A DNA stretch of 64,000 nt from an uncultured Nitrospiraceae bacterium (GTDB lineage: Bacteria; Nitrospirota; Nitrospiria; Nitrospirales; Nitrospiraceae). Made by a program: the position numbers. The stretch is from positions 1,056,001 to 1,120,000 of the forward strand of contig CAWJWJ010000001.1 of NCBI GenBank assembly GCA_963846575.1. Direction: 5' to 3'. Shown one piece after another: positions 12,001-24,000 of the stretch. Each line of letters opens with the position of its first letter. Position 1 is the stretch's first letter.

Positions 12001-15000
12001 CCAAACCGTGCGGAGCAGAGCGCGTGAGGCGTTGGAACGCATTCGATGACGCCATGGACCAAAGGAGGAATGCGAGGGACCGGTCAGGCGGTCCAGTCAA
12101 GAACGACCAGCTCAGGCGTGCAATTGAGACGAACGGGAAGGACCGACCAACCGAGACCGCGATTCACGTAGAGACGGTGGTGGCCGTTGCTGTAGAAACC
12201 GTGGGTTCGGCCGTGGCAGCCGGGCGGCAGCCAGAAGGTCGGGATATGGGGAATCCGCCACTGCCCTGCATGGCTATGGCCGCAGAGCGTGAGGTCGACA
12301 TGATGTTCAGGCATCAGTTGATCAAGAATATTGGGGGCGTGGGCCAGGACAAGCGTGAAGCGTCCGGGCTGCCGGGAAGGCACACAGCTGAGGTCCGCGC
12401 GGTGGAGTGAGGGGTCGTCTAGTCCGACGATCGCCAGTTCCCCTGCTTCCATGGGGAGGAACGTCACCTGGTTAATCAGCAGGGTCACTTTGCGACGGTC
12501 GAATTGTTCGACGAACTCATCGATGGGGACGCCACTGTAGTGATCGTGATTGCCGAGAGTGACGAAGACCGGAGCAAGCCGCCGTAGTTCAGTAAGAAAG
12601 CGAAGGACATGCGGTAGGCCGTCTCGAACATTCAGGAGATCGCCGGTGATGAAGATCCAGTCTGGCGCCAAACCGGCAATGCGGCGGACGAGCGTGCGAT
12701 GTCGTGGGCGGTATCGGTCCAGATGTAAGTCACTCAAGTGTATGGCGCGACGCCCGGCCAAAGGAGCATGCACAAGGGGAAGGTGCGTGACGGCGGGAGA
12801 AGACAGGCCGACTTCGAAGCCAGGCACCAGGTTGAACAGATGGTGGAAAGGGCGGCCAAGCCAGTGGCCGATCCCGACACGCGCCAATTCCTGCCACCGG
12901 ACAAGCCTTGCGATCACTCCATCACCCGATTCAAGCGGTCCTTGTCGGCGGTCGTGACTCGATACCCTTGATCGTACAACTTGCCCATGCCGTTCATCAG
13001 GGCTTCCATACCTCGGGAGCTGTGCAAGGCATCGAACGTCGCCGTCAGAGAGACCAGGTGCGCATCGGCACCGAGCGAAGGCTCTGACGAGAGGTCCAGG
13101 GCGAGGAGGACGTCGTGAAGTTCACGGCTGTTATAGAGGGAATTATCGTCGCCATCGCCGACCAGGGCAAACTCGTAAAAAGTCAGACTGAGAGACAGAA
13201 GGGCTTGTGTGCGCTGGAAGTCGGTCCGGACGGCGTCGATTCCTTCCGGATAGCGCGAGCGGCAGTCCGATGCATCGGTGGCAGCCAAAAGTGAGCCGGA
13301 TCCCTCGCTCCAGGCGATACGCTGCACTTCGGGAGGCGCTGGTCTCTGGCGCTGCTGTTTATAAAACCAGTTCATACATTGGCTGGCGGTGGCAAAGGCC
13401 TGCTTGTCGGTGTCGGCTTGTCGGTGGATATGCTGAGTGAAACGGCTGAAGATATCGATACCGGTCGACTGTGGAGCCGCCATCGGTGAGGACACGAACG
13501 CGACCGTGATGGAGCAGAACAAGGCCCAGCCGGCAAGAGGTGTATAGGGGATTCTGGTCTGCATCGGGTTCGCTCAGAATGAGTGTCGGATCCCAGCAAG
13601 GCCTAGAAAGAGTATAACACGGTTGAGTGCCCTGCCTATCCGGGGTCCGTAATTGATACCTATCATGAACGAGAAGGAATGCTCATGACAACCTTGTCCT
13701 GGCTCGATGAAAAGTTACCCTACCTCACCGCTGCCATCCCGCCCCTCGGCGGACGAATTCGCAGCACCCCCGATGATTTTTGCGTCGAGGAACGCCCACT
13801 CTATTTACCCTGCGGGCAAGGGGAGCATTTATACATTCGAGTCACCAAACGAGGCTTGTCCACGCCGGATCTCCTCCTGCGGCTGTCGTCCCAGTTCCGC
13901 GTGAGAGCCCAATCCATCGGGGTCGCCGGGCTGAAGGATGCCCAGGCTGTGACCACGCAAATGATTTCATTACAGGGGGTGAAGGAGGAAGTCGTGGCGG
14001 GGTTGTCCACTGACGAGCGTCTACTTTCCTTCGAGATATTGGGTCGCCACCGCAACCGACTCCGTAAGGGACACCATGCAGGCAATCATTTCCGGTTGGT
14101 GATACGGGATGTCAGCAATGAAGCGGCAGACTCTCTCGAGCCTCTGTTCGACGTGCTGCTACGCCGCGGGATTCCCAACTATTTCGGTCCTCAACGGCAG
14201 GGGAGATCGGGGACGAATTTTCAGTTGGGGGCCGAGCTGTTACAAGATGTTTCCCGCCGCAACAAGCTGAGCCGCGACAAGCGGATGTGGTTCATGAATT
14301 CCTATCAATCCCATGTGTTCAACCAGATCCTTGCCAAGCGGATCGATAGTATCGATCGGGTGTCTCTCGGCGACTGGGCCATGAAAACGGAGAATGGGGC
14401 CTGTTTTCCCGTGGAGCAGCCTGATGTGGAGCAGTTGCGAGCCGACCGGTTCGAGATCAGTCCCACCGGTCCGCTCTTCGGTTCGCGCGCGCCATGGGCC
14501 ACGGGAGTCCCGGGCGACGTTGAGAAGTCCGTGATTGCAGACCTCGGGACCACACCGGAGGCCCTGTCGCAAGCCGGCGCCGATTGTGGATTCCGGGGAG
14601 AACGGCGCGCCCTGAGGGTCCGCCTCAACGATCTCACCTGGTCCCTCGACGGCTCTGTCTTGACCCTGGCGTTCTGGCTGCCTCCCGGTTCCTACGCCAC
14701 CAGCCTGCTCCGGGAAATCGTGAAAACCCACACCTCCTCATAGGCCCGGGGCAGTCCGGGGAGCGTCTGTATTCGACGGAGTCCCAGAGCAGGATCGTCC
14801 GCCGTTCTCCGGCCACCGCATGGTTGGGTGCCATCAGCATGCCCTGATCATCGTGTGCTCCGTGCGGTGTGAAGGTTCGGAGAGACTCGCAGTTTTGTGT
14901 CTTCCATGTCTCATATTTTCCGGCGGATGGTAGAATCTGAGGAAAGGCGAGCAGCGGGTTGGAGGGAGGATGGGCATGGCAGAATCGCAAGAAACCGTTT

Positions 15001-21000: not shown

Positions 21001-24000
21001 TCCGTGCTGGCTCCACGGGAAAAAGTCGAAGCGGTGTTGGCGGTGTTATTCGCCGACACGACGGCGCTGGGCATCCGCATTCACGAGGTCCAGCGACGGG
21101 TCTTGCCGCGTCGATTCACCTCGGTGCTCGTCGAGGGCTGCGAGGTCCGCATCAAACTGGCGGACCAGGCGCCGGGGCAGAGCAAAGCGTCACCCGAATA
21201 CGAAGACTGCAGACGCATTGCCGAACAAAGCGGCCGGCCTGTGAAAGATATCCTGGAATCCGCGATGCTGATGTACCGCCAGTCCCAGGGCAAAGTGCGA
21301 AGGGGCAAAGTGAACCATTGAGCGTCGAGACCGTTGCCCCGTCCCTCCTCCCTTGCCACGGCTCCCCACGAGGTCTCGCGTGACGATGCTCCTGTACGCG
21401 GGACTGTTCCTGGCCTCGGTGATTATTACCCTCGGCGGATGCCAGCTCTTCACGAATGGCATTGAATGGCTGGGGAAGCGTCTCCACATTTCCGAGGGCG
21501 CGGTCGGGAGCGTGTTCGCTGCAGTCGGGACGACCCTGCCGGAGACCTCGATTCCGATCATTGCCATTTTTTTCGGTGCAGGCCGGGAACAGGTCGAGGT
21601 GGGCCTGGGCGCGATCCTCGGCGCGCCCTTCATGCTGAGTACGCTGGTCTTGCCGATTCTCGCGCTGCTGTTACTGCTCTATGCCCGGATTGGAAAACGG
21701 ACGGCCACCTTCAAACTCAACTATGGCGAAGTCCGGATCGATATCCTGTTCTTCCTCATCAGTTATGCCCTGGCATTAATCTGTGCCGCCATCCCCTCGC
21801 GGCTCTTTCACTGGGCGATCGCCGCGGTCCTGATCGGACTGTATATCTATTACATGCGACTCAAATTCTCAGGAGAGGATGAGGAGACGGAGGGGGAGGG
21901 AACCATCGAACCACTCCTGTTTGCGAGGCGATCTCTCCACCCTTCCTATGTCGTCATCGGCCTGCAAGGGATTGTGGGGTTGCTGGGATTGATCGGAGGG
22001 GCGCATCTTTTCGTCACGGCAGCGAACTCCATTTCGGCCGAACTCCATGTCTCGCCGCTGATCCTCGCCTTGCTGATTGCGCCTCTGGCGACGGAGTTGC
22101 CTGAAATGTCCAATAGTTTTCTCTGGCTCTACCGGAAGAAGGATCGGCTGGCGGTGGGAAATGTCACCGGGGCCATGGTGTTTCAGGGCACGTTTCCCGT
22201 GTCCGTAGGCTTGCTGGGGACCGATTGGGTATTGGGAACGACGGCCCTGGCCACAATGGTGCTTGCCGTGTTCGCCATGGGGATCAGCCTGCTTCAGGTG
22301 CTGTGGTCGGGTCAGTGGCGCCCCTGGTTGCTCAGCGGCAGTGCCTTGCTGTACCTTGGCTACACATTATTCCTGTTCATGAATGGATCCTAAACGCATG
22401 CCACGTCCAGAACGTCCGGTCTTGGGCCTTACGATGGGTGATCCTGCCGGGATCGGGCCGGAGGTGATCGCGAAGGCCCTGGCCGATAGGGCCCTGGCGC
22501 GAATGTGCCGTCCCGTGGTGGTCGGCTCCCTTGCCGTGATGGAACGGACGATCACGTCGCTGAAGCTTCCGCTCCAGATTGTCGAGTTCGATCCGTCGCG
22601 CACCTCGCGACTCAAAGCCGGGCAGGTGGCCGTGGTGGATGCACTCGGCAGCCCCTTGCCGCGATTTCGCATGGGGGTGGCGTCGGAGGTCACCGGCGCT
22701 GCGTCTATTGCGTTCATCAAGACGGCTGTGGAACTTGCACAGGCGGGAATTCTCAGCGGGATCGTGACTGCGCCGATCAATAAAGAAGCCATGAACATGG
22801 CCGGTTATCATTATCCCGGCCATACGGAACTGCTGGCCGATCTGACCAAGACCAAGGAATTCGGCATGATGATCGTGGGCGGACCCCTGAAAATCATGTT
22901 CACCACCACCCATGTCGCGATCAATTCCCTTTCCTCAATGCTGACCACGGAACGGATTGCCACAGCCATTCGTCTCGCCCATCTGGGGCTGACGCGATAC
23001 TTCGGCATTGCGCGGCCGAAGATCGGTGTGGCGGCATTGAACCCGCATGCGGGCGAACACGGGTTGTTCGGAAACGAAGAGGCGACCAGCATTGTTCCGG
23101 CCGTGGAACAGGCCCGGGCCGCCGGAATCAAAGCCAGCGAACCGTTACCCGCCGATACGCTGTTCGGGAAAGCTGCCAGAGGCGCGTACGACGGCGTCGT
23201 GGCGATGTATCACGATCAAGGCCTGATCCCGCTGAAACTGATCGCCTTCGGTACGTGCGTGAATCTGACAGTGGGCCTCCCGATCATCCGGACTTCGGTG
23301 GACCATGGGACGGCGTATGATATCGCCGGCAAAGGGGTGGCTGAACATGGCAGCCTGTTGGAGGCCGTGAAGGTGGCCGCCAGACTGACCCAGTCCTGGT
23401 CATCTGCGACCGGACGGTCCATTCGTTCATAGAGAGGAGTGTGCCCGGTATGTCAGAAACGGCCGCATCAGTCATCGATCAACAGGTGAAGGAGTTGGAT
23501 GCGATTGCGAAACGGACGGTGCAGGATTTTAATACCGTCCTGGGCGCGGAACGGATGGGGCAATGGAAGATCCGCACGGTGGCACTGTTGCAGCATCATA
23601 CGGGCAAGAAAGAGGCAGACGAGCTGGCGGGTAAGGATCCCGGTCCGGCCTTTACCAACGATCTGATCGAAGAATTCACCGATGAGGTGGAGTGTTATCG
23701 CTCATACCTCGTGGCGCTCGCCAAACGGCTCCGAGCCGCGGTGCCGCCGCCGGCAGGATAGTTCGGCGCAAGACCATGGCTCCCTCGTTCCCACCAGCGC
23801 TCAAACGGCTCGGCCAGAACTTCCTCATTGATCCTAACATCATACGCAAGATCGTGGCTCTGGCAGCGCTTCGTCCCGATGAGGCGGTGCTGGAAATCGG
23901 GCCGGGGCGAGGGGCCCTGACGGCAGGCTTGTGCGCCGACGCGGGCCGGGTCATTGCCGTCGAGATTGATCCGCAGCTGCAGCCTTTGCTCCAGGAGAGC

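Follow-up and report, generated by a model that had tools for sequence, protein, structure and literature searches.

Gene pair and neighbouring genes

The window is a stretch of 64,000 nucleotides of contig CAWJWJ010000001.1, from an uncultured Nitrospiraceae bacterium. Reading the open reading frames of the source contig, we found two overlapping genes on the forward strand: ocd (14976..16220), encoding an ornithine cyclodeaminase (OCD) of 414 aa, followed by adh (16217..17017), encoding a stand-alone ArgZ-type arginine dihydrolase (ADH) of 266 aa. The genes overlap in ATGA and a stop codon lies between the two frames, in line with the initial annotation, which had described the two halves of ArgZ/AgrE as an overlapping pair in reversed order. 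The ATG at 14970, its start of ocd, is an in-frame alternative; however, relatives begin at the position of 14976. The beginning of ocd (14976..15215, forward strand) encodes an ACT-like N-terminal domain that corresponds to the middle domain of ArgZ/AgrE.

OCD was found in 111 of 151 Nitrospirales genomes, and in all 111 ADH lies directly downstream, with -1 to 262 nt between the two genes; five further genomes have ADH without OCD. As all OCD-bearing genomes keep the same order, the order is not due to chance. The comparison shows two genes of conserved order, whose overlap predicts translational coupling. Upstream of ocd lies a promoter-like motif predicted from pattern conservation, an extended -10 element of the form TG-n-TAGAAT (14928..14936, forward strand). 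Among 53 distinct relatives, 48 carry the pattern TGnTAnnnT no more than 110 nt before OCD (shuffled sequences: mean 3.8, maximum 9), compared to 4 of 62 control regions before ADH and 2 of 18 before larC. This suggests that the motif serves as the ocd-adh promoter.

The genes larB and larC are located downstream of the pair, as annotated before, but they do not follow it directly. The pair is followed by an antisense ORF for a zinc-ribbon membrane protein of 148 aa (17038..17484, reverse strand; PF13240, E 5e-6) and by a perfect sigma-70 consensus, TTGACA-18-TATAAT (17506..17535, forward strand, 12/12 matches), in front of gpsA-larB. Then come gpsA (17544..18569, forward strand; NAD(P)H-dependent glycerol-3-phosphate dehydrogenase, NF000942 438 bits, cut-off 257), which overlaps larB in ATGA, and larB itself (18566..19348, forward strand; nickel-pincer cofactor biosynthesis, NF033503 286.5 bits, cut-off 175). 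A conserved antisense ORF of 189 aa (19371..19940, reverse strand), which has no match in Pfam or NCBIfam and has homologues in the corresponding position of relatives, separates larB from larC (20110..21321, forward strand), a nickel insertase gene with fused C1 and C2 parts (TIGR00299 191 bits and NF052512 133.5 bits, both above cut-off). The genes larE (C1:171909) and putA (C2:1748192) lie away from the pair, as had been noted.

The assignment of OCD to the nickel-pincer ornithine cyclodeaminases was upheld. The protein scores 464.3 bits against TIGR00300 (cut-off 410.8) and consists of an ACT-like Saccharop_dh_N domain (about residues 6-80) and ArgZ-like C-terminal domains, with PF04455, PF21571 and PF21570 all above the Pfam cut-off. 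It matches AgrE (6lrf, residues 287-691) with E 8e-94, and the residues H220, H248, D322, G362, K383, D386, R387 and G388 are all present. It resembles the archaeal stand-alone OCDs of the same family (42-48% identity to 23 homologues; PDB 3c2q, presumably from Methanococcus, E 1.6e-94), and larB, larC and larE are all present in the genome, as expected for such an enzyme. The comparison system here is the NPAD-dependent OCDs of the TIGR00300 type (Desguin 2025, as cited in PMC13524815); the available text of PMC13524815 describes non-covalent binding of NPAD. None of the archaeal OCD loci that we examined has an adjacent ADH gene, unlike in Nitrospira, and four have an agmatinase-family gene.

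ADH matches ArgZ (Sll1336, 6jv0) with E 3.8e-77 and the best DDAH with E 1.5e-11, which reproduces the earlier values of 4e-77 and 1e-11. Its E116, H164 and C260 align with Sll1336, where the position of C260 is replaced by Ser in the variant structure 6jv1; we take this Cys-His-Glu set to be the catalytic triad. N69 aligns with the Asn that is replaced by Ser in the variant structure 6juz, and the corresponding ArgZ Asn71 was reportedly recognised as a determinant by Zhuang (2020), DDAH having Asp there. These four residues, together with R135, Y163 and D166, are invariant in 90 of 90 ADH homologues. The E values, the aligned triad and the Asn at the DDAH Asp site thus bear out the earlier call of an ArgZ-type arginine dihydrolase. 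The arginine dihydrolase model NF052232 gives 298.1 bits, which is below its curated cut-off of 450, and its lead over the 'Mtb dimethylargininase' model is only 56 bits; NF052232 is narrow, as even a fused ArgZ reaches 444.8 and all stand-alone homologues scanned fall below the cut-off. The pair was rejected as a bifunctional ArgZ/AgrE, which is one chain of about 700 aa with the dihydrolase first: here there are two ORFs in reverse order, scoring 386 and 294 on NF052231 (cut-off 1025).

A putative route from arginine to glutamate

To see which pathway the pair may serve, we compared its occurrence with that of putA and the proline genes. We observed putA in 109 of 111 genomes with OCD, compared to 17 of 40 without; these Nitrospirales counts include kin and are not independent. 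Within one genus the contrast is 20/20 versus 2/14, and the four members of the family that lack both genes of the pair all lack putA. At two loci outside Nitrospirales (L217, L222) putA lies divergently beside OCD. The gene proA is present in all 151 genomes, and the source genome also has proB, proC and argF. No arginase was found in the source genome, only agmatinase and arginine decarboxylase. The absence of cyanophycin genes was confirmed, with cyanophycinase in 0 of 151 Nitrospirales genomes (a Caulobacter control matched) and a best CphA score in the source genome of 127 bits (cut-off 850). The cyanobacterial cyanophycin-linked ornithine-ammonia cycle was rejected for lack of cphA and cphB.

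Since putA tracks the pair, proA is universal and cyanophycinase is missing, a catabolic route from arginine via ornithine and proline to glutamate is favoured, and the co-loss of putA supports the release of ammonia along it that had been proposed. We estimate at roughly 0.75 the probability that ocd-adh is a two-gene operon for arginine catabolism whose Lar cofactor is supplied in trans. By homology, ADH would hydrolyse the guanidino group twice via a Cys260 adduct, yielding ornithine, CO2 and two NH3, with His164 and Glu116 assisting Cys260 and Asn69 standing where DDAH has Asp. OCD, with the nickel-pincer dinucleotide made by LarBCE, would then cyclise ornithine to proline and release a third NH3, and the unlinked PutA would oxidise proline to glutamate. 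This chemistry is already known: AgrE forms proline, CO2 and three NH4+, followed by PutA to glutamate (PMC8262935). Nitrogen and reducing power might thereby be recovered from arginine that is surplus, recycled or imported by a permease, with no cyanophycin store and with proline biosynthesis proceeding via ProBAC. The source genome has only two APC permeases and no evident arginine ABC importer, as PF00497, the polar-amino-acid binding protein, gave no match (control 12/14). A search for amoA found no match in the source genome and matched no control genome either.

Rather than nitrogen recovery via glutamate, the main purpose of the same chemistry could be proline, used as an osmolyte or in biosynthesis, or ammonia for pH control. 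In GapMind 2026 the Methanococcus OCD appears among the steps of proline biosynthesis (PMC13759103, available text), the available text of a preprint on Coxiella suggests that an ADH-like gene and a cyclodeaminase act in pH homeostasis (10.64898/2026.05.14.724635), and the housekeeping-type extended -10 motif would suggest steady expression. However, the genes of the ordinary proline route are in place and putA, which destroys proline, is the gene that tracks the pair, making this role improbable, at about one chance in eight.

Proposed supply of the nickel-pincer cofactor

A second reading, about equally improbable, holds that OCD works independently of the Lar cofactor, with NAD+ instead, and that larBCE of Nitrospirales serve only GSU2086- and LarA-family proteins. 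The lar genes are near-universal in the order (143-144 of 151; larB and larC in 144 each), well beyond the 111 genomes with OCD; 28 lar-bearing genomes have GSU2086 and no OCD, and the source genome carries both a LarA-family and a GSU2086-family gene. On the other hand, larB is present in all 111 OCD-bearing genomes of the order, and 19 lar-bearing genomes have OCD without a GSU2086 match, at most one of them (G113) with a LarA match. In one genus of seven genomes (g13) larB, larC, larE and OCD are absent together. With 33 of 144 larB-bearing genomes lacking OCD and 17 OCD-less genomes retaining putA, the profiles are one-sided. TIGR00300 is, moreover, curated as nickel-pincer dependent.

Decay of the catalytic core where larC is missing also speaks for the cofactor. 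Outside the order, all 24 OCDs from genomes with larC keep the eight core residues listed above for OCD, a stand-in for the published NPAD-binding residues, whereas 12 of 14 without a larC match have lost some; the two intact exceptions are L065 and L076. This tally is partly circular, as the residues were chosen by comparing the two sets, and 12 of the 14 genomes belong to one verrucomicrobial lineage; many are MAGs.

The initial annotation saw the pair and larB/larC as one cluster, shown for this genome only. This scope proved too narrow: of the 58 OCD-bearing genomes in the source family, 55 have larB within 6 kb of the pair and on its strand, which would fit a co-regulated cluster maintained by selection. 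We consider such a cluster very unlikely. Between the pair and larB stand an antisense gene and a conserved promoter motif that matches the consensus perfectly; it is one of seven perfect matches in 4.2 Mb, and 33 of 37 relatives have it (none in shuffled sequences). The nearness is not found in the other two families (0/42 and 0/11), where the lar block is distant or on another contig. No lar gene lies within 4 kb of 80 other OCD loci, and no larB or larC within 6 kb of 56 non-Nitrospirales ADH loci. The gpsA-larB-larC-pdxA block occurs across the order and is still present at two loci that lost the pair (L143, L144), and the zinc-ribbon ORF travels with it, being retained where the pair is lost. 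Given the intervening antisense gene and the separate predicted promoter motifs, we rejected ocd-adh as a client co-transcribed with larB/larC, which look like a separate transcription unit.

In the favoured reading, the older gpsA-larB-larC unit would provide the cofactor in trans, and its nearness to the pair would reflect one ancestral placement in the source family. The unit probably serves further clients, as had been suggested; GSU2086-family proteins (120/151 genomes) are more likely the second client than the LarA family, which is rare (12/151).

The unfused pair and its relatives

Outside Nitrospirales, OCD lies upstream of ADH at 37 of 56 ADH loci, and the unfused pair occurs in at least seven other phyla. 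Fused ArgZ forms a separate clade in both trees; a test of the direction, fusion or fission, gave an AU p of 0.57 and favoured neither. Thus a 'split ArgZ' is not supported as a feature of nitrifiers, and 'unfused' describes the pair better. The fused enzymes ArgZ (Sll1336, Synechocystis; PDB 6JUY/6JV0) and AgrE (Alr4995, Anabaena; PDB 6LRF), covered by NF052231, share with it the dihydrolase, the ACT-like middle domain, the cyclodeaminase core, the catalytic residues and PutA as the next step. In contrast, Nitrospira has two polypeptides in reverse order, the ACT-like domain at the head of OCD, and no cyanophycin genes. Its OCD is only 39-43% identical to the fused forms, compared to 49-53% for planctomycete stand-alone forms.

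The ACT-like first 80 residues of OCD might act in trans as a regulatory or partner subunit of ADH, in a widespread, effector-gated operon of which ArgZ/AgrE is one fused offshoot; we advance this tentatively, as it would have to overcome odds of about two to one. It would account for the coupling in 111/111 genomes, for the larC-less verrucomicrobia, where this domain stays 68-82% identical while the core falls to 53%, and for a gene of 75-92 aa encoding such a domain directly upstream of ADH at seven loci of two separate lineages, with neither larC nor an OCD core. Against it, in five genomes of the order and at five outside loci no domain of this kind was detected near ADH. The domain model (beta-alpha-beta-beta-alpha-beta, pLDDT 74) agrees with the ACT fold in topology and matches AgrE 281-360 (Z 12.9) and MJ1480 (Z 12.4); its scores to ACT-bearing proteins (ThrA C-terminal domain 8.7, GcvR 8.2, AHAS regulatory subunit 8.1) are level with those to unrelated ferredoxin folds.

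Free-standing relatives of the ArgZ N-terminal part are also known outside cyanobacteria, namely Rv2323c of Mycobacterium tuberculosis and CBU_0279 of Coxiella. In the available texts (PMC4569260; 10.64898/2026.05.14.724635) both are, like ADH, guanidino-modifying and tied to arginine-to-proline conversion; unlike ADH, Rv2323c occurs with rocD/rocE and CBU_0279 is unlinked to the cyclodeaminase gene CBU_1727, and these texts describe coupling to a TIGR00300 gene for neither. DDAH (Pseudomonas, PDB 3RHY/1H70) shares the fold family and the Cys-His-Glu triad, but has Asp at ADH position 69 and Lys at Asp166, and matches with E only 4e-11. Membership of ADH in the DDAH family was rejected on Asn69, which replaces the Asp of the DxVFxED motif (Asp in 4/4 DDAH paralogues and 3rhy), and on three DDAH models all under cut-off (NF045658 48.6/450, NF045660 82.8/340, NF045659 241.7/300). 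The model NF045659 (DiMArgaseDdahMtb) is, from its name, presumably built on Rv2323c. The least probable reading is that the hydrolase is a DDAH after all, or that its substrate is a different guanidino compound, such as methylarginines or homoarginine: close relatives are named 'N-dimethylarginine dimethylaminohydrolase' in databases, NF045659 gives the 'dimethylargininase' score above, and genus g13 and G051 have ADH but no OCD. However, the key site is Asn, true DDAH paralogues are separate in related genomes (L127-L130), ADH is in fixed coupling with an ornithine-using enzyme, and the stand-alone relative Rv2323c is required for proline formation from arginine, which its knockout blocks (PMC4569260, available text).

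The enzymes are of known kinds, and the pair is often found in other environmental bacteria. For this pair, spread over many phyla, the common annotation as DDAH or amidinotransferase is corrected. The small stand-alone enzymes allow the dihydrolase and the nickel-pincer cyclodeaminase to be studied separately, and the verrucomicrobial decay series serves as a natural guide to which residues bind the cofactor and to what the ArgZ middle domain does. If the route works, a nitrite-oxidising Nitrospira would free three molecules of ammonia from each arginine, and PutA would provide it with glutamate and electrons. This would add an arginine route to the known organic-nitrogen options of Nitrospira, and the ammonia released could feed nearby ammonia oxidisers.

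The ocd-adh gene pair

An ATGA overlap joins two open reading frames on the plus strand, an ornithine cyclodeaminase gene (OCD, window positions 14976–16220, 414 aa) and an ArgZ-type arginine dihydrolase gene (ADH, 16217–17017, 266 aa). OCD scores 464 bits on TIGR00300 (cut-off 410.8), carries PF04455, PF21571 and PF21570, and aligns with residues 287–691 of the cyanobacterial fusion protein AgrE (E 8e-94). ADH matches the N-domain of the fused ArgZ protein Sll1336 with E 3.8e-77, compared to 1.5e-11 for dimethylarginine dimethylaminohydrolase (DDAH). By sequence, the pair is genuine and well conserved, and the enzyme names in the initial annotation proved correct. 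Among the matches listed, Nitrospira records are the nearest relatives that bear a name (79–87% identity).

The alternative that ADH is a DDAH was weighed residue by residue. The Ser substitutions of two Sll1336 variant structures, 6juz and 6jv1, fall on the residues that align with N69 and C260, and N69, R88, E116, R135, Y163, H164, D166 and C260 are invariant in 90/90 ADH homologues, seven of them fused ArgZ. Positions 69 and 166 are occupied by Asp and Lys in all four DDAH-type paralogues of related genomes and in PDB 3rhy. Asn at the N69 site is reportedly the dihydrolase determinant (Zhuang, in 2020), and the abstract of that study is said to describe arginine dihydrolases as broadly distributed in bacteria. 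Two scores count against the dihydrolase assignment: 298 bits on NF052232, below its cut-off of 450, and 242 bits on an 'Mtb dimethylargininase' model. The NF052232 cut-off is narrow, as one fused ArgZ reaches just 444.8 bits; furthermore, the mycobacterial Rv2323c is itself required for proline formation from arginine (PMC4569260).

As had been proposed, larB and larC lie downstream of the pair, but an antisense zinc-ribbon ORF and gpsA intervene; gpsA and larB are followed by an antisense 189-aa ORF, larC and, still in the window, a Na/Ca-exchanger-family gene, pdxA, rsmA and ftsK. Both antisense ORFs (17038–17484 and 19371–19940, minus strand) are conserved, have no assigned function and move with the gpsA-larB-larC block. 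Also on the minus strand, positions 28841–41199 hold one run of genes for a TonB receptor, a multi-PAS protein, a substrate-binding-like protein, two histidine kinases and a response regulator. Four TPS-domain ORFs, a ShlB/POTRA transporter, a CHAT-TPR protein and two DUF928 genes cluster at 42920–61947 (minus strand), where the short TPS genes at 57798–61947 are possibly broken. Neither the Rfam nor the tRNA scan of the window gave a match.

Proposed arginine breakdown in Nitrospirales

All order-wide counts refer to one sample of 151 Nitrospirales genomes. Full-length ADH occurs in 116, a count that omits 11 of the 127 matching genomes because their listed matches were only weak DDAH-like proteins or fragments. 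OCD occurs in 111, and in every one of these ADH is the next gene downstream (gap -1 to 262 nt). ADH is kept without OCD in three loci of genus g13 (L131–L133) and in one other genome (G051, L134); in L131 and L132 it sits after an MFS transporter gene, and a histidine-kinase gene lies downstream in all three g13 loci. L135 and L136 (G111 and G052) retain just a C-terminal remnant.

From the observed genes, coupling, residues, accessory genes and presence/absence profiles, a route can be proposed in which ADH would convert arginine to ornithine, CO2 and two NH3, OCD would convert ornithine to proline and NH3 on a nickel-pincer cofactor, and PutA would convert proline to glutamate. The OCD step would proceed by hidden hydride transfer on this cofactor. 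Outside the window, the source genome encodes larE and putA, both distant from the pair as previously noted, as well as proB, proA, argF, a LarA-family gene and a GSU2086-family gene; proC has two matches over the cut-off. Its sole arginase-family gene is an agmatinase gene that adjoins a pyruvoyl arginine decarboxylase gene.

The opposite role, in which the source genome would lack ProBAC and depend on OCD for its proline, was rejected as proB, proA and proC are all present. Across the order, proA is found in 151/151 genomes and putA in 126/151. Furthermore, putA occurs in 109/111 genomes with OCD compared to 17/40 without, although kin are not independent; within genus g12 the figures are 20/20 and 2/14. 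The losses are spread over several genera, and putA is absent from all four members of the family without OCD and ADH. Since putA tracks OCD and proA is universal, these profiles point to catabolism as the direction of the ocd-adh route, like the catabolic arginine route described for AgrE plus PutA (PMC8262935). In families f1 and f2, the majority of genomes show two proA-like matches.

Cyanophycinase was found in 0/151 genomes, which bears out the earlier statement that cyanophycin genes are absent, and the source genome has no cyanophycin as an arginine store. A PF00497 binding protein was not found there either (control 12/14); two APC permeases are encoded, one of which resembles BcaP/cationic transporters, under the cut-off. 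The arginine would most likely come from protein turnover or permease uptake.

The Lar cofactor and its probable users

The genes for making the nickel-pincer cofactor are widespread in the sample (larB 144/151, larC 144/151, larE 143/151). The clustering of lar genes with the pair held within the source family, where 55/58 OCD-containing genomes have larB downstream of the pair, on the same strand and less than 6 kb away (in the remaining three, at 19 kb once and on other contigs twice), but not in the other two families, where larB is near the pair in 0/42 and 0/11. In 28 of these 42 it is at least 31 kb away on the same contig, and in the rest on other contigs. A gpsA-larB-larC-pdxA block is also present in other families (L145, L146) and is intact where the pair has been cleanly lost (L143, L144). 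An extended -10 motif precedes OCD (14928–14936, plus strand; 48/53 relatives, shuffled mean 3.8), and a perfect TTGACA-18-TATAAT lies at 17506–17535 (plus strand; one of seven in the genome, in 33/37 relatives and in no shuffles). Because the promoter motifs are separately conserved and the block is independent of the pair, ocd-adh and gpsA-larB-larC probably form separate transcription units. Between the end of the sigma-70 consensus and the gpsA ATG lie 8 nt (17506–17546), which suggests that the gpsA-larB transcript has no leader or almost none. Before gpsA, conservation of the TATAAT context extends even to family f4.

Despite the probably separate transcription, dependence of OCD on LarBCE is still likely, because no OCD-containing genome of the order lacks larB and because genus g13 (seven genomes, 80–99% complete) is without larB, larC, larE, OCD and the GSU2086 family alike. 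An OCD that uses a nickel-pincer adenine dinucleotide is reported in PMC13524815, citing Desguin 2025. LarA was rejected as the chief other client, as its family occurs in only 12/151 genomes, mostly of the source genus; the LarA-family protein of the source genome (G000 C1:1262622, L010:1468-2805) falls under every subfamily cut-off and adjoins an FkbM methyltransferase. The GSU2086 family is found in 120/151 genomes. Among the 144 lar-containing genomes, 92 have OCD and GSU2086, 19 OCD alone, 28 GSU2086 alone and five neither. Thus the GSU2086 family is present in 28/33 lar-containing genomes without OCD, and in none of the seven lar-less genomes; in several genomes of family f2 its gene lies about 5–15 kb from larB. 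Its member in the source genome (G000 C1:628577-629491, L121:1444-2439) scores 450 bits on NF052581, shows a weak relationship to the Rossmann domain of OCD (PF21570, E 6e-5) and has no sequence match in PDB. We regard it as a candidate for an uncharacterised nickel-pincer enzyme.

Unfused and fused forms beyond Nitrospirales

Outside the order, we compared ADH and OCD loci, each sample being a selection, the best 80 of about 600 capped matches, rather than a census. In this ADH sample, OCD lies directly upstream in 37/56 non-Nitrospirales loci, titled Planctomycetota, Verrucomicrobiota, Armatimonadota, Thermodesulfobacteriota, Binatota, Nitrospinota and others; the other 19 comprise seven fused ArgZ, seven in which just a small ACT-like gene lies upstream, and five with no OCD match nearby. 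In the OCD sample, ADH is directly downstream in 24/80 aligned loci (four repeating earlier loci) and in none of the archaeal ones, and a divergent putA adjoins OCD in two of the 80. In methanobacterial loci (L172, L186, L194, L206; three of four scanned), an agmatinase-family gene is followed by OCD.

The small gene (75–92 aa, Saccharop_dh_N; L070, L075, L077, L079, L086, L089, L101) sits immediately before ADH in two lineages, Vampirovibrionia-like and Chthoniobacterales-like records, and corresponds to the first domain of OCD. The predicted fold of this domain is beta-alpha-beta-beta-alpha-beta; it matches AgrE 281–360 with Z 12.9, followed, at Z ~8, by proteins with ACT domains and others of ferredoxin fold. 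No OCD core (PF21570) was found anywhere in the seven small-gene genomes. We searched larC for 50 of the 57 loci L064–L120 (omitting L068, L085, L095, L103, L114, L115 and L117) and found it in 26/50 genomes: 24/38 with full OCD, 0/7 with the small gene only and 2/5 with ADH alone. When 12 larC-less verrucomicrobial genomes are compared to three larC-containing relatives, identity is 0.68–0.82 in the first domain and 0.53–0.84 in the core; conserved core residues are lost and the N-terminal motif is intact, for a residue set picked from this same comparison. Degenerate full-length OCDs without a larC match occur in Chthoniobacterales-like records (L083, L094, L096, L108, L111, L113, L118, L120). 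Some degenerate OCDs still pass the TIGR00300 cut-off, so that the family name may over-call activity. Our reading of this series, which consists mostly of MAGs and few independent events, is that the OCD core would depend on the Lar cofactor and decay without it, and that the ACT-like domain may have a job tied to the dihydrolase. That it regulates the dihydrolase in trans is less likely than not; against it, ADH has no ACT-like domain detected nearby in 10 cases. The upstream ORFs tested in G051 and genus g13 gave no match to a stand-alone ACT gene.

The initial annotation had called the pair a split ArgZ/AgrE. The pair probably works like ArgZ/AgrE but stands outside the fused family. In trees from which near-duplicates and degenerate OCDs were removed by hand (70/98 ADH rows, 84/133 OCD rows), fused ArgZ forms one clade for ADH and for OCD (SH-aLRT 93 and 100), and the Nitrospirales sequences form another (SH-aLRT 99 and 100). 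The reversed gene order relative to ArgZ likewise argues against a simple fission. The free ADH tree places the fused clade inside unfused forms. Rooting this tree did not prove fused ArgZ derived, as the tree rooted on the fused branch gained 3.7 log units and was not rejected (AU p 0.569); 'unfused' is therefore the safe word, and 'ancestral' is not claimed. Fused ArgZ (NF052231 over the cut-off) also occurs outside cyanobacteria, in records titled Verrucomicrobia (L097, L105, L109); L091, titled Sphingobacterium, groups with cyanobacterial fused copies and may be mis-binned.

A Coxiella preprint (10.64898/2026.05.14.724635) describes a stand-alone ADH homologue. In agreement with the earlier searches, which had found no report, our literature search, mostly without subscription journals, found no paper on the pair in Nitrospira; the primary ArgZ/OCD papers may mention unfused pairs or Nitrospira. 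We conclude that ocd-adh is a widespread unfused operon whose enzymes are of a known kind and, within the literature searched, new for Nitrospira.
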